A stretch of DNA of 64,000 nt from Gammaproteobacteria bacterium Ga0077536 (GCA_001464935.1 LNEL01000055.1:83056-147055); one strand, 5' to 3'; shown: positions 39,254 through 48,958, counted from the first letter of the stretch. A program made the numbers and translations. Notes: generated from the sequence alone by a model not told the origin.

Positions 39254-40936
39254 ATGGCCCACGACCTCATCATCCGCAACGGCACCGTGGTCGACGGCAC
39301 CGGTGCCCCGCGCATCCGCGCCGACGTCGCGATCAGCGACGGCATCATCACCGAAGTGGGCCAGATCAGCGGCAGCGCGAAACGCACGATTGACGCCTCC
39401 GATCTGATCGTCGCGCCCGGCTTCATCGATCCCCACACGCATTACGACGCGCAGATCTGCTGGGACAGCCTGCCGACGTCCTCGTGCTGGCACGGCATCA
39501 CCACGGTCGTGATGGGCAACTGCGGCGTGGGCCTCGCGCCGTGCCGCCCGGAGGCGCGCGAGATTGCGGCATGGGATCTCGTCAACGTCGAAGCAATTCC
39601 GTTCGACGTGCTGAGCAAGGGCGTGACCTGGGACTGGGAGTCCTTTCCCGAATACATGGATGCCGCCGCGCGCCGCAGGCCCGGGCTCAATCTCGCGTTC
39701 TATGCCGCGCTGACACCGTTCCGTCACTACGTGCTCGGCGAAGACTCGATGTCGCGCGCCGCCACCGCCGACGAGACCTCGCAGATCGCGCGCCTGCTGC
39801 GCGAAGCGATGGACGCGGGCGCGCTCGGCTTCACCACCACCAACGCCGCGCAGCACATCGGTTACCAGGGCCGTCCGCTGGCCTGCCGCAACGCGAGCCG
39901 CGACGAACTGAAGGCGTACGCGAACGTGCTGCGCGATCTCGGCCGCGGCACGATCGAAGTGTCGCTGACGAACGAAGTGTCGGTCGTCGACGATGCCGAG
40001 TACGAGCTGATGGATCTGCTGCTGCGCGAGAGCAACCGGCCGGTGACCTGGCTTGCGCTGCTGAACCGCGTCGACAACCCCGAGGCACCGCTGCGCACGC
40101 TCGATCGCATGGCGCCGCTGCACGCGCGCGGCGCGGTGCCGCAGGTGTCGTGCCGGCCGCTGATCGTGCAGCTCGACATGCGCAAGCCCTTCATGTTCGC
40201 GAACATGGCGTGCTGGAACCCGGTGTTCAACCGCAGCGTCGAGGAGCAGGCGGCGATCTATCGCCAGAGTGCCTTCCGCGATCAGTTCAGGGACGCGCTG
40301 AAGAATGCGAACATCTTCACCGGCGACTGGTCGCTGATGATCATCCATGAAGTCGAGAATGCCGCGCTGACGCCGCTGATCGGCCGCAGCGTCGCCGACA
40401 TCGCACGCGAGCGCGGTCGCGATTCGATCGACGTCTTCTTCGAGCTGACGCTCGAGGACAATCTCGCGATGCAGTTCACCTACGAGCTGTTCAATTCCGA
40501 CGAAAGCCGCACGCCGGACCTGATCTGCGATCCGCGCACGATGATCGGCTTCTCCGACGGCGGCGCGCACGTCGACATGTTCTGCGACGCCGGCTACGCG
40601 ACCTACCTGCTCGGCACCTGGGTGCGCGACAAGGCCGCGCTGTCGCTCGAACAGGCGGTCAAACGCATGACGACCGAACCCGCCGCGTTCTTCGGCATCA
40701 CGCAGCGCGGCCGGATCGCACCCGGCCTCGCGGCGGACTTCGCGATCTTCGACCTGTCACGCGTCGGCTCCAAGAAGCGCGGCGAGATGGCACACGACCT
40801 GCCCGGCGGCGGACGCCGCCTCGTCGTGCCGTCCACCGGCATCGAGTACACCATCGTCAACGGCGTCCCGCTGTTCGAGCGCGGCAAGGATTCCGGCGCC
40901 CGCCACGGCCAGGTGCTCCGCTCCGGACGCGCCTGA
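39254..40936 (+). CDS. N-acyl-D-amino-acid deacylase (D-aminoacylase) family amidohydrolase
   Basis: MAHDLIIRNGTVVDGTG...GFIDPHTHYD metal-dependent hydrolase motifs. Confidence 0.85.
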   Translation: MAHDLIIRNGTVVDGTGAPRIRADVAISDGIITEVGQISGSAKRTIDASDLIVAPGFIDPHTHYDAQICWDSLPTSSCWHGITTVVMGNCGVGLAPCRPEAREIAAWDLVNVEAIPFDVLSKGVTWDWESFPEYMDAAARRRPGLNLAFYAALTPFRHYVLGEDSMSRAATADETSQIARLLREAMDAGALGFTTTNAAQHIGYQGRPLACRNASRDELKAYANVLRDLGRGTIEVSLTNEVSVVDDAEYELMDLLLRESNRPVTWLALLNRVDNPEAPLRTLDRMAPLHARGAVPQVSCRPLIVQLDMRKPFMFANMACWNPVFNRSVEEQAAIYRQSAFRDQFRDALKNANIFTGDWSLMIIHEVENAALTPLIGRSVADIARERGRDSIDVFFELTLEDNLAMQFTYELFNSDESRTPDLICDPRTMIGFSDGGAHVDMFCDAGYATYLLGTWVRDKAALSLEQAVKRMTTEPAAFFGITQRGRIAPGLAADFAIFDLSRVGSKKRGEMAHDLPGGGRRLVVPSTGIEYTIVNGVPLFERGKDSGARHGQVLRSGRA

Positions 40937-40961
40937 GTTCCGGTAGCGGGTGGCTGCTGCG

Positions 40962-41014
40962 TAATTGGGGACAGATCTATTTAATCGCCAAAAATAGATC
41001 TGTCCCCATTTTCG
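40962..41014. repeat. REP doublet: TAATTGGGGACAGATCTATTTAATCG abutting its inverse CCAAAAATAGATCTGTCCCCATTTTCG
   Basis: Minimal element made of the left and right REPs of the RAYT unit with nothing between them. Confidence 0.7.
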
Positions 41015-41122
41015 CCCGTGTCAACCGCTGAGCTGGAGCCGCTGGTGCGCGGCGCCCCTGTAAGCAACCCATCGACCTTGCCTGGACGCTGTCGTGGGAC
41101 GGACATGGCCAGTTCATCTTCC

Positions 41123-41163
41123 AAATGGGGACAGATCTATTTTCTTGAATATATCTGTCCCGA
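41123..41163. repeat. degenerate REP doublet (CCAAATGGGGACAGATCTATTTTCTTGAATATATCTGTCCCGAGG)
   Basis: Same GGGGACAGATCT core, decayed. Confidence 0.5.
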
Positions 41164-41305
41164 GGACTCGCGCCCCGACTCAATCCACGCGGCGGCGGCG
41201 CGAGGCGAGCAGCGCGGTGGCGCCGGCCATCAGCCACAAAGCGCCCGGGACGGGTACCGGCTGCGGGGCGGTGAGGCCCTGCAGATCGAACGCGATGCCG
41301 GAGTC

Positions 41306-42055
41306 CTAGGCCTCGTCGCCAAAGTTCACGACGCCCACTTCCAACTGGTAGGTGCCGGCGCCCGGCGTGACCAGTGACTGCAGCCAACCGGTGAAACCGC
41401 AACCTTCGGCGTTGTCGCGCCAGCAGGTGCCGTTCCACTCGCCGAGCGGCGACCAGTCGATGGGGTCGAAGTCACTGGACTTGGTGGTGCGCGTGTTGAA
41501 CTCGAACTCGTCGTAATTGACGATCACCGTGTCCACGTCGAAGTCCACGGTGTTGTTGTCGGCCTTGCTCAACGCATTGCCGGGCACGACGTTCTGCTTG
41601 TTGCCATTGGTGCTGCGCGCGGTGAAGAGCCACGCCGCCGTGTCGCCGGCGCTGTCGATGAGCCGAGCCCATGCGTAATCGTCGAACCCCTTGCCATCGG
41701 TCGAGACGTAGTTGAAATACGCCGCGACGGACTCGCCGGCCGCGAGCGTGAAGGGCGCCGACGTGTACGAGGAGCCATTGGTCTGGGTGAAATCCGCGCC
41801 GCCACCGCCGCTCTCGACGATGTGCAGCGGCGAGACGTTGTGGGCGGTCGAGCTGTTGGTCGTCAGGTAGGCATAGCCGGGGCTGCCGAACGGCGACAAG
41901 GTGATATCGCCGTCGGCGCCGAGCACGCCGCAACTGCCGACACAGGTCCAGGTGGCGAGATCCGGGCTGACACCGGCCGCGGCAACCGATGTACTGGCCA
42001 GGCCAGCGGCAGCCGCCGCCAGGCCGGCGAGGAGTTTCAGGTTCTTTTTGTTCAT
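41306..42055 (-). CDS. secreted hypothetical protein
   Basis: Start at MNKKNLKLLAGLAAAAAGLASTSVAAAG (Sec signal). No recognisable catalytic motif. Sits between REP copies. Confidence 0.55.
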   Translation of the reverse strand: MNKKNLKLLAGLAAAAAGLASTSVAAAGVSPDLATWTCVGSCGVLGADGDITLSPFGSPGYAYLTTNSSTAHNVSPLHIVESGGGGADFTQTNGSSYTSAPFTLAAGESVAAYFNYVSTDGKGFDDYAWARLIDSAGDTAAWLFTARSTNGNKQNVVPGNALSKADNNTVDFDVDTVIVNYDEFEFNTRTTKSSDFDPIDWSPLGEWNGTCWRDNAEGCGFTGWLQSLVTPGAGTYQLEVGVVNFGDEA

Positions 42056-42192
42056 CAAGGCGTCCTTCAGGGGTGATTGAACGGGCGGAAAGTGCGGCCC
42101 TGCCGTCTGTCTGGCGCCGCCGGTTGTAGTACCCGTTAATCCAGCCGGCACGACAGATGGTTCAAAGCCAGGAAGTGGCGCTTGTGAACACG

Positions 42193-43095
42193 TAATTGGG
42201 GACAGATCTATTTAATCTGTTTAATCGCATCAACAGTCGCGCTCGAGCCGCGGTCCGCGCGGCCGGCCGCGGGGCCTGAGCTCGATTCGCCGGCCTAAAA
42301 TCGACGCCACTTCTTCCGTAAATCGTTCGCCTCCCGTCAGATGGCCCCGTTGTATCCCCATTAGAATCAAGTCCCCCTCGGCCGGTGGTAGCGGCTCACG
42401 CAGGTAGTCGCGCCACGCTTGCACGAGCGGCGGTGAATTGGAGGACCATGCGTCGTCCAGGAGCTGCGGCTCAATCAATCCAAGGCGTTCCTGGCAGCTC
42501 GACCAGGGATAATCCTCTGGCGCGACGGCGATACCGGCGCGCACCGGGTTCAGTTCGATGTAGCGGCAGCAGGCATGGAGATAGGCCTCGCTCTGGACGA
42601 CGCTCGACTTGTAGCGGCCGTCCCAAAGCGTGCCGGTGCGACGCTCCTGTGCGTTGTGATAACGCGTTTGGCGCCCGGCCAGGCGCTTCATCAAACGCGC
42701 CAGGCTGTCCTTGCGCGCCGGCACGAGCAGTAGATGCACGTGATTGGTCATCAGGCACCAGGCGAACACCCGAACTTCGCATTCGGCCTTCAGTGCAGAA
42801 AGCGAATCGAGATATCGTAAATAGTCGGCAGCCTCCGCAAACGTGGCCTGTCGATTGTGTCCGCGCTGGACCACGTGGTGGGGATACCCCGGCATGACAA
42901 TACGTGCCATCCGTGGCATCGCTTGCGTCCTCTGTGACTGGAAACTGCACCCGTTGAAGGATGCCTGGAGGCTGCATTAAAGAACAGTCGTCGCGCCTGC
43001 GCTTTTCGCGGGGCGGAGCGGCATGCGGCGTGGGCGATAAAGCGGGGCTCGAAGTCAAAAATCGAAGTCAAAAACAGATCCGTCCCCTTTTTTCG
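42193..43095 (-). mobile_element. complete REP-RAYT-REP unit
   Basis: Left REP TAATTGGGGACAGATCTATTTAATC (42193..42217), the tnpA-like gene, and right REP CAAAAACAGATCCGTCCCCTTTTTTCG (43069..43095) in inverted orientation. Confidence 0.8.
42230..42919 (-). CDS. REP-associated tyrosine transposase (RAYT; IS200/IS605 Y1 TnpA-like)
   Basis: PGYPHHVVQRGHNRQ, HxH motif in CLMTNHVHLLL, catalytic Tyr region RYIELNPVRAG. Confidence 0.85.
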   Translation of the reverse strand: MPRMARIVMPGYPHHVVQRGHNRQATFAEAADYLRYLDSLSALKAECEVRVFAWCLMTNHVHLLLVPARKDSLARLMKRLAGRQTRYHNAQERRTGTLWDGRYKSSVVQSEAYLHACCRYIELNPVRAGIAVAPEDYPWSSCQERLGLIEPQLLDDAWSSNSPPLVQAWRDYLREPLPPAEGDLILMGIQRGHLTGGERFTEEVASILGRRIELRPRGRPRGPRLERDC

Positions 43096-43180
43096 CGGTT
43101 GCCGGTCGGGTCGAGAAGAGGCGGTTGCTCGCCGCCGAGGTCTGGGTGGTAAGCCGGCTCATGTTGTCGTAACCGCACTT

Positions 43181-43205
43181 GAATAGATCTGTCCCGGATT
43201 TTCCG
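43181..43205. repeat. solo REP (GAATAGATCTGTCCCGGATTTTCCG)
   Basis: Matches the right-REP consensus. Confidence 0.5.
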
Positions 43206-43254
43206 ATTTCTTGCTGGCCACCGCGGCGCAATGCTGGCGCCGAACATCTGGGCA

Positions 43255-43407
43255 TAATTGGGGACAGATCTATTTAATCGGCTCAAAAGTCGCGCTCGAG
43301 TCGAGATCCGAGCGACCGGCCAAGGGCCCCGAGCTCGACTCGTCGGCCTAGAATCGACACAACTTCCTCCGTAATTCAGCCGAAAATAGATCCGTCCCCT
43401 TTTTCAG
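43255..43407. mobile_element. RAYT-deletion MITE: left REP + ~120 bp homologous to the 3' end of tnpA + right REP
   Basis: The interior aligns with 42219..42330 (the C-terminal codons of the RAYT and its downstream flank). Confidence 0.7.
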
Positions 43408-43557
43408 ATGTACGTGGAACCGAGGCAAGGTCACAATTCCAGGCGTCGCGCGAAAAGACTCGATTCTCGACGTCCGCTTCAGCAATGCCGATTCAGTAAC
43501 CCTTTCATCCAGCCTATAATCAGTGTCTCAATCACCTTCCCCCCCAACGGAGACCAC

Positions 43558-43680
43558 ATGGCCAAGCCACCCAACTACAAACAAGAGAAAAAGCGCCGCG
43601 AAGATGCGCAAAAGAAAAAGAAGGAACTGGAGCAGCAGCAAAAAGTCGCCCGCAAGAATTCGCCCGTCATTCCTCAGTGA
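43558..43680 (+). CDS. small Lys/Glu-rich protein (40 aa; DUF2986-like)
   Basis: MAKPPNYKQEKKRREDAQKKKKELEQQQKVARKNSPVIPQ with a GGAG RBS. GTGA overlap with the next gene. Local GC clearly lower than the surroundings. Confidence 0.4.
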   Translation: MAKPPNYKQEKKRREDAQKKKKELEQQQKVARKNSPVIPQ

Positions 43681-44279
43681 ATGGCGCGCTCGAGCTGGAA
43701 TGTGACAGGGCACCAGACACTGACACTGAGGAGCCGATTCTTGCTGCAACTAAAAAGTGGCTGGAACGCGCTGTAATCGGACTGGGCCTTTGTCCTTTCG
43801 CCGCAAACGTGCTTCTGCGCGATCAAATCCGCTATCGAGTCAGCACGCAGGATTCGACAACTGGTTTGCTGCAGGATCTCTCCTGCGAGCTACAGTTTCT
43901 TCGCGATACAGACCCGCAGCGCTGTGAGACGAGTTTGCTGATTCACCCTCACGTGCTCAGCAATTTTTTTGACTATAACGAATTCCTGAACGAGGCTGAT
44001 GAAGCCGTTTTTGAGCTGGGGCTCACGGGTGAACTGCAAATCGCCAGCTTTCATCCGGCTTATCAGTTTGCTGGATGCGCGCCGGACGACATTGAGAACT
44101 ACAGCAACCGCTCGCCCTACCCGATGTTGCATCTCCTGCGAGAAGCGAGCGTCGCGCGCGCGGTGGCGACTTTCCCCGGTATCAACGAAATAGGCAGCAA
44201 CAACATCTCGACCTTGCGTCGCTTGGGGAAAGCCGGTTGGCAACGATTAGATCTGAACCCCTCCCCAACGTCGACGTAA
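43677..44279 (+). CDS. DUF1415 domain protein
   Basis: GLCPFA motif; 200 aa; low-GC region. Confidence 0.7.
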   Translation: MNGALELECDRAPDTDTEEPILAATKKWLERAVIGLGLCPFAANVLLRDQIRYRVSTQDSTTGLLQDLSCELQFLRDTDPQRCETSLLIHPHVLSNFFDYNEFLNEADEAVFELGLTGELQIASFHPAYQFAGCAPDDIENYSNRSPYPMLHLLREASVARAVATFPGINEIGSNNISTLRRLGKAGWQRLDLNPSPTST

Positions 44280-44307
44280 AGCACAGATCAATGGCTGATC
44301 CCCGGGC

Positions 44308-44416
44308 TAATTGGGGACAGATCTATTTAATCGCCTTTCGCGGGGCAAAGCGGCACGTGGCGCGGGCGACAGGACAAAGCTCGAAGCCAAAAATAGATCT
44401 GTCCCCTTTTTCTCGG
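44308..44416. repeat. RAYT-derived MITE: left REP + ~55 bp homologous to the RAYT 5' flank + right REP
   Basis: CCTTTCGCGGGGCAAAGCGGCACGTGGCGCGGGCGACAGGACAAAGCTCGAAGCCAAAAATAGATCTGTCCCC aligns with 42990..43090 upstream of tnpA. Confidence 0.65.
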
Positions 44417-44500
44417 TTTCATTTCGTTATACCCGGACTACCCGGAGGCGCAATATCCGCCGGAAGCGGCGAGTCATTCAGCTTCTTGCGCGACCGGTGG

Positions 44501-44992
44501 CTATGCTGGTTTTGCCTGTTCGAAGCGGGCCACGAGCAGCGCGAGTGCCTCGGGCGGCAGCTGATCGCGAGGGAAGACGATGAAGATTTCGGCGTCGCGC
44601 GGTTTGCGGCGGAGCAGGAGGCAGGGCTCGAGGTATTCGAGGCCATCGAAGGCGGCCCAATACGCTTCGATGTTTCCCAGTGCCGACTGTTCACGCAGCA
44701 CGGACTCGCCAATCTCGTAGCGCAGTGGCTCGGTGCCGAGCACGTCGAGTTGCAGCTGCGCGATCCGCACGGCGTTCGCGCGCATCGAATCCAGGAAGGC
44801 CATCACCAGCACGCTCGCAGTCGTCAGGGCGACGGCCGGCCACGGTGCGGCGCGCATCAGGAACATCGCCAGCACGCTGCCGGCGCCGATGACGCCGGCG
44901 ATGTAGTAGGGTCGCCGGAAACGGCGCTGCCACCACGCGGTATAGGCTGCCCGCAGCGTCTCCGGCGTATGCCGGATGTCAAAGGCGATCAC
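44501..44992 (-). CDS. YcxB-like membrane protein (start uncertain)
   Basis: Two TM helices (VIGAGSVLAMFLMRAAPWPAVALTTASVLVMAFL). Tentative GTG start; the Arg-rich upstream part of the track ORF is discounted. Confidence 0.4.
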   Translation of the reverse strand: MIAFDIRHTPETLRAAYTAWWQRRFRRPYYIAGVIGAGSVLAMFLMRAAPWPAVALTTASVLVMAFLDSMRANAVRIAQLQLDVLGTEPLRYEIGESVLREQSALGNIEAYWAAFDGLEYLEPCLLLRRKPRDAEIFIVFPRDQLPPEALALLVARFEQAKPA

Positions 44993-45078
44993 GCTGCCGG
45001 CCCTGTGCTGCGCGAAACTCGCGCGCAGCCACCCGTGTCGCGCGGATTCGCAGCGCCGGTGACGGCCGGCCGCCGCAT

Positions 45079-45453
45079 TCAGGCGTGCGTTTCGGCCATG
45101 TAGACCTTCTGCGCGATCTGCCAGCGGCCGTCGATCTTCAGGAACGACAGGATGTCGGTGAAGTAACGCGGCGGCACCGCGCATTTCAGTTTCACGTGCG
45201 CCATCGTCGGGCCGATCAAATCGATGCTGAGGATGTGGTCGTCGCGCTGCTTGCCGGCGGCCTTCGGGGATTCCCGATTCTTCACCATCTCGCACCACTG
45301 GTCGCGTGGAATGATCTTCAGCTCGCCGTCGAGTACGGCGGTCAGCGCGCAGGTCTGGTGAAAGACGGCGGCGAGCTTCGCCGCATCGCCTTCGTAGAGC
45401 CCGTCGAGATAGGTCTGCGTCGCGGCGCGAATCTCATTCAGATCGTTGGACAT
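45079..45453 (-). CDS. NTF2-like (SnoaL/DUF4440) protein
   Basis: 124 aa; last gene of the LLM-ADC operon. Confidence 0.6.
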   Translation of the reverse strand: MSNDLNEIRAATQTYLDGLYEGDAAKLAAVFHQTCALTAVLDGELKIIPRDQWCEMVKNRESPKAAGKQRDDHILSIDLIGPTMAHVKLKCAVPPRYFTDILSFLKIDGRWQIAQKVYMAETHA

Positions 45454-45486
45454 CGCAATCTCTCCTGGTGTGGGCGGGCGGTAGGA

Positions 45487-46248
45487 TCAGCGGGCGATTT
45501 TCTTCGCGCCGCCCTGTTCGGCCGGCACGACGAAGTCAGCGGTGAAACGCGGCGCGTGCAGCGTGGCGTCGACCAGCGCGTGTGTGCCGGACATCGGGTA
45601 CTTCGGTGTGATGCGGGCGTCGCCGAGGCCGGCGGCGTCGAATGTCAGCAGCTGCGGCGTGCCGCGAATCACGCGCTTGAATGAGTAGCCCGCTTCCATC
45701 TGCACCATCATCGGCTGGTCGCCGACGCGCGCGGGATTCAGGGCCGGCGAATACTTCACCGCGGCACCCGCCCCGACGACCGGCTGCATGTGCGTGGTGA
45801 CGGTGTCGAGCAGCGTGCGGCCGTTCTGGACGATGCGGCCCTGCAGGCGATCGTAGTTCTCGCGGTAGTGCACGTCCGCGACCTCATAGTTGAAGCCGTA
45901 GCGTCGCTGCAGCCACTCGCCGACGTCCGCGCGTGTCACGTAAGCCGCATGAATCAGATGGCGCGGCTTGATGCCGGTGCGGCACGCCAGGCCGAGCCAC
46001 GCGCATTCGAAGGCGCCCAGCGGCCCGCCGTCGCAGCGCCAGAAGGTGACGCCGAGATGGGCGGGAATCGCCGGGTGCAGGCTCGCGGGCAGGCATTCGA
46101 GCGCGGCCTCCATCGGCACTTCGAACAGCGCGTAGTGCACCTGCAGATTCTCGAGCGTGAGGTCTTCGGTCAGGCTGATATCGAGGCGGGCCGTGACCTC
46201 ACGCCAGTCAGCGGCGGGGCGATGGCCATACAGCAGTTCGGCTTTCAT
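45487..46248 (-). CDS. acetoacetate decarboxylase (ADC) family protein
   Basis: Start at an internal ATG that overlaps the stop of the upstream LLM gene (ATGA). 253 aa ADC-like beta-cone fold sequence. The N-terminal 225 aa of the track ORF are junk. Confidence 0.8.
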   Translation of the reverse strand: MKAELLYGHRPAADWREVTARLDISLTEDLTLENLQVHYALFEVPMEAALECLPASLHPAIPAHLGVTFWRCDGGPLGAFECAWLGLACRTGIKPRHLIHAAYVTRADVGEWLQRRYGFNYEVADVHYRENYDRLQGRIVQNGRTLLDTVTTHMQPVVGAGAAVKYSPALNPARVGDQPMMVQMEAGYSFKRVIRGTPQLLTFDAAGLGDARITPKYPMSGTHALVDATLHAPRFTADFVVPAEQGGAKKIAR

Positions 46249-47354
46249 CGTGCCCCTACCGCCGCGCGGGCCGGCTTGTGCTCGCTGAAATGCGGCATCA
46301 CTTCGCGCGCGAAGAGCCGCAGGCTGTCCATCACTTCCTCGTGCGCGATCACTTCGCGCGCCTGCACCATGAACACCAGCTGGTCGGCACCGGCGGCTTC
46401 CCAGCGCCGCACGGTGTCGATCAAGGTCGCCGGATCGCCGAAGCACAGCCCGCTCGGCGGCAGCTTGTGTTCGCCCGGCGCATGCGGGTCGGGCCGCAGC
46501 GTGCCGAGCAGGCCGATCGCAGTGTAGTTGCTGGCCGGATAGGCTTCGGAGATCTCGACGGTCTGGCCGGCCATGTAGCCGAAGGTCGATACCATCTCTT
46601 CGCCGCGTTGCCGCGCGTAGCTGCCGTCCTTGTGACAGAACAGCCAGTTCGCGACTGCAATCTGATCGTTGACGAAGGCGCCGACGGGCTCGCATTTCTT
46701 CACGCGTTCGCGATAGGCCTCGAAGCGCGGGATGTTGCGCTCGACGTCCGCGATCGAGAGGATCAGCGCGCCCATGCCGCGGTCGGCGGCATCGAGTTCG
46801 GTGCCGTGGCCCGTCACCGCGACCCACAGCGGCGGATGCGGATCCTGCCAGGGTTTCGGCAGCACGTTGCGTTCCGGCATCGTGTGGTAGGTGCCTTCGT
46901 AGCCGTAGCGCTCGTTCATCCACATCTGTGGAATCACGCGGCAGTATTCGTCCCAGTTGCGCTTGGTGTCGTCGACGCTCGCATTGAAGCCGGCGAGTTC
47001 ATTCCACGTCGACGAGCGGCCGGTGCCGAACTCGACGCGGCCGCCGGACAGCATGTCGAGGAACGCGGCCTTCTCGGCGAGGCGAATAGGGTGGTGCAGC
47101 GCCGGTACGCAGGTCGCGATGCCGAAGCCGAGGCGGATGCGGGTGGTCTCGCGCGCTATCGCGGCGAGGAACATCTCGGGGCAGCTGGCGTGGCTGTACT
47201 CCTCGAGGAAGTGATGCTCGACGCACCACACGCTCGAAAACCCGAGTTCATCGGCCAGCACCGCCTGCGCGATGGCGTTCTCGTAGACCGCCTTCTGCGT
47301 GTCGCGCGTGAACGGGCGCGGCGTCGACAATTCATAAAAGAGACCGAACTTCAT
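46245..47354 (-). CDS. LLM class flavin-dependent oxidoreductase
   Basis: Start at M40 (MKFGLFYELSTP...) seven nt after GGAGGG. Confidence 0.85.
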   Translation of the reverse strand: MKFGLFYELSTPRPFTRDTQKAVYENAIAQAVLADELGFSSVWCVEHHFLEEYSHASCPEMFLAAIARETTRIRLGFGIATCVPALHHPIRLAEKAAFLDMLSGGRVEFGTGRSSTWNELAGFNASVDDTKRNWDEYCRVIPQMWMNERYGYEGTYHTMPERNVLPKPWQDPHPPLWVAVTGHGTELDAADRGMGALILSIADVERNIPRFEAYRERVKKCEPVGAFVNDQIAVANWLFCHKDGSYARQRGEEMVSTFGYMAGQTVEISEAYPASNYTAIGLLGTLRPDPHAPGEHKLPPSGLCFGDPATLIDTVRRWEAAGADQLVFMVQAREVIAHEEVMDSLRLFAREVMPHFSEHKPARAAVGAR

Positions 47355-47490
47355 CGCGAACCCTCCTGCAGGTCCGCCCGAGTGTGCCATAGCGGGGCGC
47401 GTGGCTGGAAGGCGGCAAGGGTCGGCGCCATGCCGGGCCCGCCTCCGCCCTGCCATGTGGCACTCCGGCAAACAGCAGCCCCGCCGGCAG

Positions 47491-47536
47491 CCACCTCAGA
47501 AAATACAGAAAATAGATCTGTCCCTATTTTTCTGAA
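47491..47536. repeat. hybrid solo repeat CCACCTCAGAAAATACAGAAAATAGATCTGTCCCTATTTTTCTG
   Basis: The 5' half resembles the CCACC-GAGAACAC family and the 3' half is a right-REP (AAATAGATCTGTCCC). Confidence 0.45.
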
Positions 47537-47548
47537 TTCAAAAACCGT

Positions 47549-48958
47549 TCAAGCGGCACCAACGGCAGGCGTCCACCCCGGCGACGCCCCACCCTGCTCC
47601 GGCTTCGGCGGCGGCGGCAGTTTGCGCTTCTCGTCGCCGACCGGTGCCGGTGGTTCGCCAGGAATCGGCATGCCGGCGAGGTAGCCGACGACTTCGCGCG
47701 CGCGGGGTGCGTCGAGGTAGGCAGCGTCGAGGCAGGCGTCGAGATCGGCCGGCTGTTTGGCGGCGGCGGCGATCAGCGCATGGGCGGCGACGGATTCTTC
47801 CTTCGGCGAGTACTGCGGCATCTCCGCATCCACGCCGCTGCGCAGCGTGTTCGCCGGAATGCGTTCACGCTGCCGGCGCGCGAGGCGCTGCAGGATGTTC
47901 CAGGCTTTCTTGTTCTGCTCGATCGGCCACACCTCGACCTGGCCGCTCGCTTCGAAGTCGCGCCAGATGTCGACGGCCTTCTGCGTGCGCAGCACGACGA
48001 TCGTCGCGCGATCGGTGCCGACGCCGCCGCAGGCGATGTCGGCCATCTCCGCGGAGAAGTCGCCGCAGTGGCGGCATTCGGGGCGCTGGTACTCGTGCAT
48101 CGCCTCTTCGAGCGGGATGGTCTCGATGCCGCCACTCTTCTTGTAGATCAGCACTTCGCCCTTGACGTTGAACTTCGAGACTTCGGTCAGCGGAATGCCC
48201 ATCTGCTGTTCGATGCGCTCGGTCATCAGTTCAGGGCGAAACACTTCCGTGCAGAACAGACCGATGCTGAACGCGATGCGCTCCTGGTAACCCTTCAGGA
48301 AGCCGCGCTGGCGGGCGACGATCTGCGGCTTCTTCTTCGCCGCGAGCAGGATGCTCGGGTCGATGTATTCCATCTTGCGCAAAGGCGTGATCTGGCACGG
48401 CACGCCGACGAAAGCCACCTGCTTCAGATCCTGTTCCTTGACCTGCTCGAGTGCGAGCGGGTTCGGACAGTAGGTGTACCAGCTCGCGGCGCTCGCCTTG
48501 ATCTGCTCGACACTCGTCGCGACCTTCGGCGTCGGGAAGCACGGGTCGTCGCCCTCGCCGACCGCCGACACCACGGCGCCGTCGATGCGGCCGGTCTCGC
48601 GCGCCCACGCCATCAGCGCAGTGACGATGCCGCCGTCCTGTGCGCGTTCGAGCACGTCCTCGTGTTTGGTGCGCGCGACGAAGATGTGGCGGTAGACGCC
48701 GAAGATGCCTTCGTAGGCCTGGTCCTCGCCGAAGGTCACGCCCTTCAGGTGCGGCTCGCGCGGCCACAGGCGCGGGCAGACTGCCGCGCAGACATCGCAG
48801 CCGACGCCTTCGCTGATCCCGCAGTAGTCGAACGACGCCGATTCCTTCGCGGTCTGCTTCGGTTTGCCGTCGACATATTCGATGACGTTGTGCGGACACA
48901 CGAGCACGCAGCTGCCGCATTCGCAGCAGCTGCCGCCGGCGACGACGTCATTCATCAT
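47549..48958 (-). CDS. coenzyme F420 hydrogenase/dehydrogenase beta-subunit family protein with N-terminal 2x[4Fe-4S] ferredoxin domain and Pro-rich C-terminal tail
   Basis: Start MMNDVVAGGSCCECGSCVLVCP (AAGGA RBS). Two CxxCxxCxxxCP clusters, then FrhB/FdhB-type N and C domains. Confidence 0.75.
   Translation of the reverse strand: MMNDVVAGGSCCECGSCVLVCPHNVIEYVDGKPKQTAKESASFDYCGISEGVGCDVCAAVCPRLWPREPHLKGVTFGEDQAYEGIFGVYRHIFVARTKHEDVLERAQDGGIVTALMAWARETGRIDGAVVSAVGEGDDPCFPTPKVATSVEQIKASAASWYTYCPNPLALEQVKEQDLKQVAFVGVPCQITPLRKMEYIDPSILLAAKKKPQIVARQRGFLKGYQERIAFSIGLFCTEVFRPELMTERIEQQMGIPLTEVSKFNVKGEVLIYKKSGGIETIPLEEAMHEYQRPECRHCGDFSAEMADIACGGVGTDRATIVVLRTQKAVDIWRDFEASGQVEVWPIEQNKKAWNILQRLARRQRERIPANTLRSGVDAEMPQYSPKEESVAAHALIAAAAKQPADLDACLDAAYLDAPRAREVVGYLAGMPIPGEPPAPVGDEKRKLPPPPKPEQGGASPGWTPAVGAA

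Follow-up and report, generated by a model that had tools for sequence, protein, structure and literature searches.

The locus described here raises the question of what kind of element a tyrosine transposase gene and the inverted repeats around it make up, and how the short gene-less units beside it arose. It lies in a 64,000-nt stretch of DNA from Gammaproteobacteria bacterium Ga0077536 (GCA_001464935.1, LNEL01000055.1:83056-147055), referred to below as the window, in which positions are counted from the first letter. A sequence-only reading had described positions 40962-44416 as an island of repetitive extragenic palindromes (REPs) around a REP-associated tyrosine transposase (RAYT), caught in the act of generating smaller elements. 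In our analysis, the locus as a whole is very probably explained as one intact TIRtron accompanied by six gene-less copies or remnants (M1, M3, d1, d2 and two solo ends). The terms TIRYT for the proteins and TIRtron for the units were coined by Di Nocera, De Gregorio & Rocco (2013; PMC3733652). The units and their parts are as follows.

40962..41014, minus strand: d1, a 53-bp hairpin doublet with exact cores at 40967-40982 (+) and 40992-41007 (-)
41123..41165, plus strand: d2, a degenerate doublet in the orientation opposite to d1, with an exact core at 41127-41142 and its partner at 41147-41162
42193..43095, minus strand: T, the full-length TIRtron of 903 bp, with inverted cores at 42198-42213 (+) and 43072-43087 (-)
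42193-42218: gene-distal terminal inverted repeat (TIR) of T
43067-43095: gene-proximal TIR of T
42230..42919, minus strand: TIRYT gene, 229 aa, with a Pfam Y1_Tnp match of 52 bits, the HUH motif H60-V-H62 and the catalytic Y120
43176..43205, minus strand: solo degenerate end, TTGAATAGATCTGTCCCGGATTTTCCG, with 2 mismatches to the core
43255..43407, minus strand: M1, a 153-bp miniature element with both ends and about 100 nt of the TIRYT 3′ end and 3′ untranslated region (UTR)
44308..44416, minus strand: M3, a 109-bp miniature element with both ends and about 55 nt of the TIRtron 5′ leader
47505..47531, minus strand: solo end with 1 mismatch to the core, 24 nt 3′ of an FrhB-like gene

The transposase and its terminal inverted repeats

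The element is classed as a TIRtron rather than a canonical REP/RAYT system because its ends fit the motif GGGGWSAS, because its protein shares 53% identity with tkm 1558, a published TIRYT, as against 18% with the E. coli RAYT, and because the ends carry neither a GTAG nor a CGTC tag. The match to tkm 1558, whose sequence was taken from Additional file 5 of PMC3733652, extends over 218 aa (E = 2e-76), and in the published alignment CLMTNHVH and SS.VQ stand where RAYTs typically have AWVVMPDH.H and DHA.R. In a family alignment of 27 homologues, His60, His62 and Tyr120 are invariant. The protein scores 79.9 bits against the NCBIfam model REP_Tyr_transpos (NF047646), marginally under the cut-off of 80, and 19.8 bits against the IS200 model (NF033573), for which the cut-off is 55. 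An AlphaFold2 model (pLDDT 80.6) predicts a Y1 core, three C-terminal helices (residues 163-208) and a disordered basic tail; its best match in the PDB is E. coli TnpArep (4er8; target-normalised TM 0.76), with the TnpA structures of IS608 and ISDra2 (2vjv and 2xma) matching behind it. Of the REP/RAYT assignment, the descent of the enzyme from the RAYT lineage of Y1/HUH proteins is thus retained, and the REP label is withdrawn.

Homologues are numerous, with more than 7,900 recovered at E ≤ 1e-10 from at most 8,000 candidates; they measure about 228-240 aa and align over their full length. The C-terminal ~90 aa are conserved family-wide and include the block QRGxLTG...F...GRR...GRP, and no Pfam helix-turn-helix (HTH) family matched the C-terminal part of the window protein even at E = 10. 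Most TIRYTs correspond to subclass 2.1 of TnpA_REP, whose members carry a C-terminal HTH-like extension (Bac_DnaA_C, HTH_23 or HTH_28), have no REPs beside their genes and occur in 14.9% of strains (Quentin et al., 2018; PMC6006769); TIRtron/TIRYT and subclass 2.1 are probably the same thing. The tail of the window protein (residues 210-229) has a near-invariant R-x-x-G-R-P among basic residues and resembles an AT-hook, and the TIR is rich in A and T in its inner part (ATCTATTTT); a minor-groove contact between the two may be possible. By exact-sequence look-up the gene is single-copy: the identical protein occurs on three contigs that represent one locus and are 99.97-100% identical (metagenome-assembled genome GCA_022843415.1, JGI metagenome sample 3300002461 and an activated-carbon metagenome). 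Judged from the genes around the element, the host belongs to uncultured Gammaproteobacteria. The JGI assembly (L120) differs from the window by one short replaced or indel segment (15250-15317 in L120, 34143-34223 in the window) some 7 kb to the left of the island, and is otherwise 100% identical.

The repeats were counted with the 16-mer GGGGACAGATCTATTT, for which the window contains 11 matches at ≤2 mismatches, compared with 0.01 expected from shuffled sequence; a twelfth, degenerate arm with 3 mismatches lies at 41147-41162. All 12 fall inside 40967-47525 and none in the remaining ~57 kb of the window, in agreement with the earlier count of about 12 copies in 6.5 kb, and, as had also been proposed, two inverted copies bracket the gene. 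The element ends in the window have the form (A)AAA/TAATT-GGGGACAGATCTATTT-T, and the TIRs are 21-26 bp long. The motif GGGGWSAS is common to the majority class of TIRs, copies of which occur singly, as dimers or in groups (PMC3733652), and the window end GGGGACAG fits it as GGGG-W(A)-S(C)-A-S(G). Neither GTAG/CTAC nor CGTC/GACG is present in TAATTGGGGACAGATCTATTTAATCG or in the 21-nt family consensus described below. The 26-nt unit had been called an imperfect palindrome, a description that does not hold: its self-complementarity is confined to the 6-bp AGATCT, and a single end folded alone yields between 0 (right end) and -3.3 kcal/mol (left end, where the value is due to a copy-specific duplication), as against -20.6 kcal/mol for the doublet d1.

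Taken feature by feature, the locus shows no difference in kind from a TIRtron. Its Y1/HUH protein is RAYT-like, ~230 aa in size and extended at the C terminus, its long inverted repeats carry GGGGWSAS, and the 12 local TIR copies stand as dimers and singles; the TIRtron is an already described kind of unit, of which the window locus is a clear and fairly ordinary example.

Gene-less derivatives and their age

The derivatives were aligned with the TIRtron in gene orientation using MAFFT, and the homology runs beyond the ends, as expected if the short units are internal-deletion derivatives, which is how they had been read. M1 consists, in order, of the upstream TIR, the last ~100 nt of the gene with the 3′ UTR, and the downstream TIR. 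It matches the 3′ end of the gene over 110 nt at 82% identity without gaps (~78% in the MAFFT alignment), and tblastn recovers 69% identity over 29 aa; the 3′ remnant of tnpA claimed for M1 is therefore real, with its coding part amounting to ~95-100 nt instead of the ~120 first given. M3 consists of the upstream TIR, ~55 nt of leader, the junction GCG|ATTAAATAG, and the downstream TIR, and its match to the 5′ leader (~55-66 nt at 77%) bears out the ~55 bp of 5′ flank attributed to it. The leader of T itself measures 153 nt, and the boundary of T at 42193 is fixed by the point where homology with the TIRtron of the relative L206 stops (...CCCCAATTA|). The doublet d1, described earlier as two fused ends, is indeed both element ends joined by the 3-nt junction GCG, equivalent to M3 less another 50 nt. 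Both d1 and M3 have TTTTTGGC and GGCGATT, whereas TIRtrons have TTTTTGAC or TTTTCGC, and GCCGATT. The most parsimonious reading is a nested series in which T gave rise to an M3-like form and this in turn to d1. Because the flanks of d1 and M3 are unrelated and the two lie 3.3 kb apart, a gene-less copy was probably copied to a new site, and the apparently shared derived junction suggests that a non-autonomous copy was mobilised.

The birth of these derivatives from the parent next to them, which was the central claim of the sequence-only reading, is contradicted by the alignments. M1 shares 78% identity with the TIRtron next to it and the same 78% with the orthologous TIRtron in L206, the two TIRtrons being 86-88% identical to each other at the nucleotide level, and M1 lacks a 9-nt duplication found in its neighbour. 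Since M1 is equidistant from the two TIRtrons and is without the duplication, the derivatives are old and did not come from the present form of the neighbouring copy; judged from these sequence distances, they date from about the time when these strains split, or from before it. T carries two copy-specific tandem duplications (42215-42230 and 43040-43066), namely the 9 nt beside the gene-distal end and the 13-nt GACTTCGATTTTT in the leader, neither of which occurs in M1, M3 or the L206 copy.

Conservation is far stronger at the ends than in the interior. At the gene-distal end ~25 nt are identical across d1, T, M1 and M3, whose interiors have diverged by ~22%, and by our own calculation the chance of 25 identical nucleotides at 78% identity is 0.78^25, or ~0.002; the ends are under constraint. 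Both complete miniatures and doublets fold into stems built from their paired ends. That of d1 comprises 17 perfect bp, with folding energies of -20.6 kcal/mol as DNA (z = -7.9) and -32.2 as RNA (z ~-8); M3 has a 16-bp terminal stem followed by U5; the two ends of M1 also pair into a stem; and the degenerate d2 still forms a hairpin of -9.5 kcal/mol as DNA (z = -3.3). Folded as RNA, the units give stems of -18 to -46 kcal/mol, and a U-run follows both d1 and M3. Of the seven units, four sit 16-30 nt beyond a stop codon: d1 lies 26 nt 3′ of that of an amidohydrolase gene, d2 ~16 nt past the end of a PEP-CTERM reading frame on the minus strand, M3 29 nt 3′ of that of a DUF1415 gene, and the fourth is the solo end at 47505. 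The right arm of d2 (TTGAATA..CCCG) and the solo end at 43176 belong to one subtype.

An Rfam scan of 40500-48000 returned sub-threshold chance matches only, and a plasmid megablast search with the 3.6-kb region gave no match. Integron attC sites were also considered for the repeats and rejected, as RYYYAAC/GTTRRRY cores are absent and the repeats carry remnants of the TIRYT gene.

Occupancy in related strains and architecture across the family

The presence/absence polymorphism between strains that the earlier reading had called for was found. The relative L203, whose flanks are 86-91% identical at the nucleotide level, is without d1, d2, T, M1 and M3 and has only relics, consisting of a trace of the 43176 solo end and a solo end by FrhB. 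The first of these retains the same 17-18 nt (CTGTCCCGGATTTTCCG) at the corresponding place, so the 43176 end predates the split of the strains; the second is conserved at the place of the window's 47505 end (12310-12325 in L203). Where the window has M3, L203 has ~195 nt of unrelated sequence, and d1 is missing from L204 and L205 as well. L203 keeps the amidohydrolase, the DUF1415 cassette and the right flank, and its PEP-CTERM gene is unrelated to that of the window. In L206 the TIRYT gene is syntenic with 87% amino acid identity, and the TIRtron abuts the DUF1415 cassette at window position 43493, a different junction. L207 and L208 carry a whole TIRtron, 77% identical, downstream of FrhB where the window has a solo end, and each side of it bears an array of three to four ends. 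Finally, in the P0124 contig (amidohydrolase 87% identical at the amino acid level) the amidohydrolase gene stands directly beside the Lumazine_bd_2 gene, with 60 bp between them and the whole 4.1-kb island absent. The island is thus a turnover hot spot in which element occupancy varies by lineage.

Two neighbouring features of the window belong to this variable region.

Between d2 and the TIRtron (41181-42050), minus strand: PEP-CTERM-type secreted-protein gene, NF038132 family
43408-44307: cassette with the DUF1415 gene, 54% GC

The interval between the amidohydrolase and Lumazine_bd_2 genes is hypervariable (40937-45078 in the window, 6935-9176 in L203, and the P0124 contig), and in L203 it holds, besides the DUF1415 cassette, a 163-aa gene and the PEP-CTERM gene that is unrelated to the window's. 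The cassette, which holds a 40-aa lysine-rich open reading frame (ORF) and the DUF1415 gene, is of low GC content (54% versus 66-67% in the flanks) and lies between M1 and M3, which are in direct orientation and give it a composite-like look; L203 has it at the corresponding position with neither of the miniature elements, and in L206 it adjoins the TIRtron directly. The PEP-CTERM-type gene of the window has an in-frame TAG at 41306-41308, past which the frame runs for 41 more codons that encode the PEP-CTERM anchor (VPVPGALWLMAGATALLASRRRRVD). Three assemblies of the same strain agree over this gene at 99.97-100% identity, so the interruption is probably genuine and the gene a pseudogene or truncated.

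The wider distribution of the ends was approached in two ways. Among 119 genome stretches recovered with the exact 16-mer, 10 also encode a homologue (37-57% identical), and in most of these 10 the core lies 32-150 nt before the start or ≤130 nt past the stop codon, often both. In addition, 80 metagenome loci were chosen solely for the similarity of their proteins. In this set, most of the homologues with the highest identity to the window protein (mostly 45% or more) are flanked on either side by GGGGACAGATYTATTT / GGGGACAGATTTATTT, which lies 35-150 nt before the start codon and 0-170 nt beyond the stop codon, whereas more distant clades have GGGGACAGACCACGKT or GGGGTCAGAG.. instead; proteins with GGGGACAGATYTATTT-type ends range down to 38% mutual identity. 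A logo of 306 distinct ends defines a sharply bounded 21-nt unit, AAAA-GGGGACAGATYTATTT-T. Inverted complementarity extends ~8 nt outside the G-run in a lineage-specific manner, which fits the 26-nt unit given by the earlier reading.

Doublets are the prevailing form elsewhere. In 106 neighbouring pairs, the hairpin orientation with the G-runs outward occurs 80 times and the reverse twice, and spacer lengths fall into two classes, 4-14 and 24-46 nt. A set of 87 doublets showed no target-site duplication, in that no combination of boundary and length gave more than ~3% matching flanks, and none is visible at the window copies; this absence fits Y1/HUH rather than DDE chemistry. Doublets were found in Pseudomonadota, Acidobacteriota, Bacteroidota, Omnitrophota and Desulfobacterota, and on separate contigs within single genomes (at least 10 blocks in Steroidobacteraceae MAG008 and at least 7 in GFS_4082). 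The same ends accompany a ‘transposase’ annotated by PGAP on a P. aeruginosa plasmid. Doublets and A-run-flanked ends were taken as the reliable sites, and lone 16-mer matches (e.g., many in Pseudomonas) as unreliable because ~280 are expected by chance in 596 Gb by our own estimate. Arrays of ends and tandem doublets with a BIME-like look occur at 2471-2882 and 3770-3881 of L207 (also in L208) and at 6770-7133 of L006.

Two further ideas were discarded on these data. Insertion into pre-existing palindromes had been considered for d1, whose flanks are complementary at 11 of 17 positions by our own count, and was rejected as a general rule, since the complementarity fades by ~8-12 nt in the 87 doublets. 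Carriage by phages was likewise rejected, since the seven viral contigs recovered have lone 16-mers without a partner, most of them without an A-run, a number that we estimate to be within chance.

The text of the two papers on the family (PMC3733652 and PMC6006769) was found to contain no statement of gene-remnant miniatures beside the gene, of strain-to-strain differences in occupancy, of the 21-nt end consensus, of co-variation between TIR and protein, or of the lack of a target-site duplication.

End recognition and alternative explanations

A working mechanism can be sketched from what is established for IS608 and TnpArep. TIRYT probably acts on single-stranded DNA, like other Y1 HUH transposases. 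As an isolated end does not fold, the enzyme's likely substrate is a stem made when both ends of an element pair, which would be presented as a hairpin by the doublets and as a panhandle by the full element. Cutting at the base of this stem, beside its A/T runs, would leave no duplication. The derivatives would have formed through internal deletions whose junctions show short microhomologies, and would then have been copied in trans by TIRYT. Alternatively, the C-terminal helical domain and the GRP tail could bind the TIR as a duplex, with the HUH domain nicking opposite strands at the two ends. We put forward tentatively, as a conjecture with perhaps the smaller part of the odds, that TIRYTs might represent a distinct mode of HUH/Y1 recognition in which paired ends are read at the stem foot, the doublet is the true substrate and the gene is carried in its loop. 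Such recognition of paired ends would explain why the 21-nt end hardly varies between phyla when identity among the proteins falls to 38%, and also the intact ends with decayed interiors, the 80:2 bias in orientation and the lack of a duplication.

The doublets look like intrinsic terminators, as the stem is flanked by A4 and T4-5, and this likeness may explain why they are tolerated just 3′ of genes; from their sequence, the A4/T4-flanked stems may additionally serve as bidirectional host terminators.

Several observations weigh against parts of this account. The junction common to d1 and M3 comprises only a few diagnostic nucleotides, and the presence of all 12 copies within 6.5 kb means that local duplication or recombination could explain part of the cluster. 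A clean empty site was not recovered in L203, L204 or L205, where segments are replaced and not precisely absent. The TIRtron is not very mobile, since it appears to have been kept at the locus while the window and L206 copies diverged by ~12%. We know of no biochemistry for any TIRYT, and its substrate and cleavage sites are inferred. As for termination, a terminator scan did not call the doublets, which is attributable to its loop limit of 3-8 nt (the d1 loop has 9 nt), and the gene-distal ends in the window read TAATT, not AAAA, giving a weaker terminator-like shape on one strand.

The most serious competitor to a TIRtron with mobilised derivatives holds that the short units are immobile elements kept by the host as terminators, mRNA stabilisers or protein-binding sites, and that they arose when a resident TIRYT gene, for the most part immobile itself, underwent duplication, deletion and gene conversion in its immediate surroundings. 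It would account for the placement of d1, M3, d2 and the 47.5-kb solo end 16-30 nt past stop codons, the strong hairpins followed by U-runs, the ~25 nt of identical ends in four copies against ~22% interior divergence, the confinement of all window copies to 6.5 kb, and the synteny of the TIRtron with the cassette in L206. The conserved ends, however, are explained equally well by selection for recognition by the transposase, and a terminator role is a prediction from folding. Against a local origin stand the derived junction that d1 and M3, 3.3 kb from each other and with unrelated flanks, appear to have in common, and the doublets on many separate contigs in several other genomes. We regard host retention as improbable, at roughly one chance in a few, although it is by some way the likeliest of the competing explanations. 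A canonical REP/RAYT system, in which a domesticated RAYT maintains a genome-wide population of REPs and REPINs, is largely refuted on definition and is accordingly given very little weight. REP/REPIN-RAYT systems are reportedly those treated by Nunvar in 2010, Bertels and Rainey in 2011 and Ton-Hoang in 2012, with 4er8 as their structure. The window locus resembles them in its Y1/HUH lineage (a REP_Tyr_transpos score close to the cut-off and TnpArep as the top structural match), in a usually single-copy gene between inverted repeats (single-copy here by exact look-up), in a synteny with L206 at 87% amino acid identity that recalls vertically inherited RAYTs, and in REPIN-like, hairpin-forming, non-autonomous doublets scattered between genes without target duplication. 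It departs from them at the level of the unit itself: a REP is a GTAG-tagged hairpin, whereas the single window end is non-palindromic, does not fold into a hairpin and bears neither GTAG nor CGTC, and REPs are lineage- and species-specific, whereas this end sequence is common to several phyla. The protein, too, has an extra C-terminal domain, stands far closer to TIRYT than to the E. coli RAYT, has the RAYT motifs replaced, and probably belongs with subclass 2.1, beside whose genes no REPs occur (Quentin et al., 2018; PMC6006769).

Least probable of all, and in our judgement close to negligible, is an ordinary autonomous insertion sequence (IS) of the IS200/IS605 or DDE type with its miniature inverted-repeat transposable elements (MITEs). 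The Pfam Y1_Tnp match (‘Transposase IS200 like’) speaks for the former, and IS608 and ISDra2 of the IS200/IS605 family do have the same Y1/HUH core and presumably the same single-strand ‘peel and paste’ transposition without duplication; their TnpA proteins, however, measure ~130-155 aa and are often accompanied by tnpB, and the ends of IS608-type elements are not TIRs, each having a different subterminal hairpin of its own with guide sequences. The window ends are TIRs that do not fold alone, the only long ORF between them is the TIRYT gene, with no tnpB, and the IS200 model falls far below its cut-off. The combination of TIRs with gene-less derivatives is that of classical IS/MITE pairs, and bacterial MITEs of DDE-type ISs such as Correia/NEMIS, RUP and ERIC (listed in PMC3733652) are similarly TIR-bounded, gene-less units of 50-150 bp that form long hairpins next to coding regions and derive from a full-length element by internal deletion. 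The window units differ from these in lacking a target-site duplication, which is at odds with DDE chemistry, and in their enzyme, a tyrosine HUH protein, with no DDE transposase gene between the ends.

For annotation, it follows that the repeats should not be named REPs and the gene should not be named IS200. TIRYTs are abundant, as the count of homologues indicates, and yet little studied. The present locus unites an intact gene, a graded series of units of 903, 153, 109 and 53 bp, and strains of differing occupancy, which makes it a convenient natural system for studying the way in which a single-strand tyrosine nuclease deals with inverted-repeat ends, and it bears on whether the shrinkage of a transposon can give rise to REP-like hairpins.

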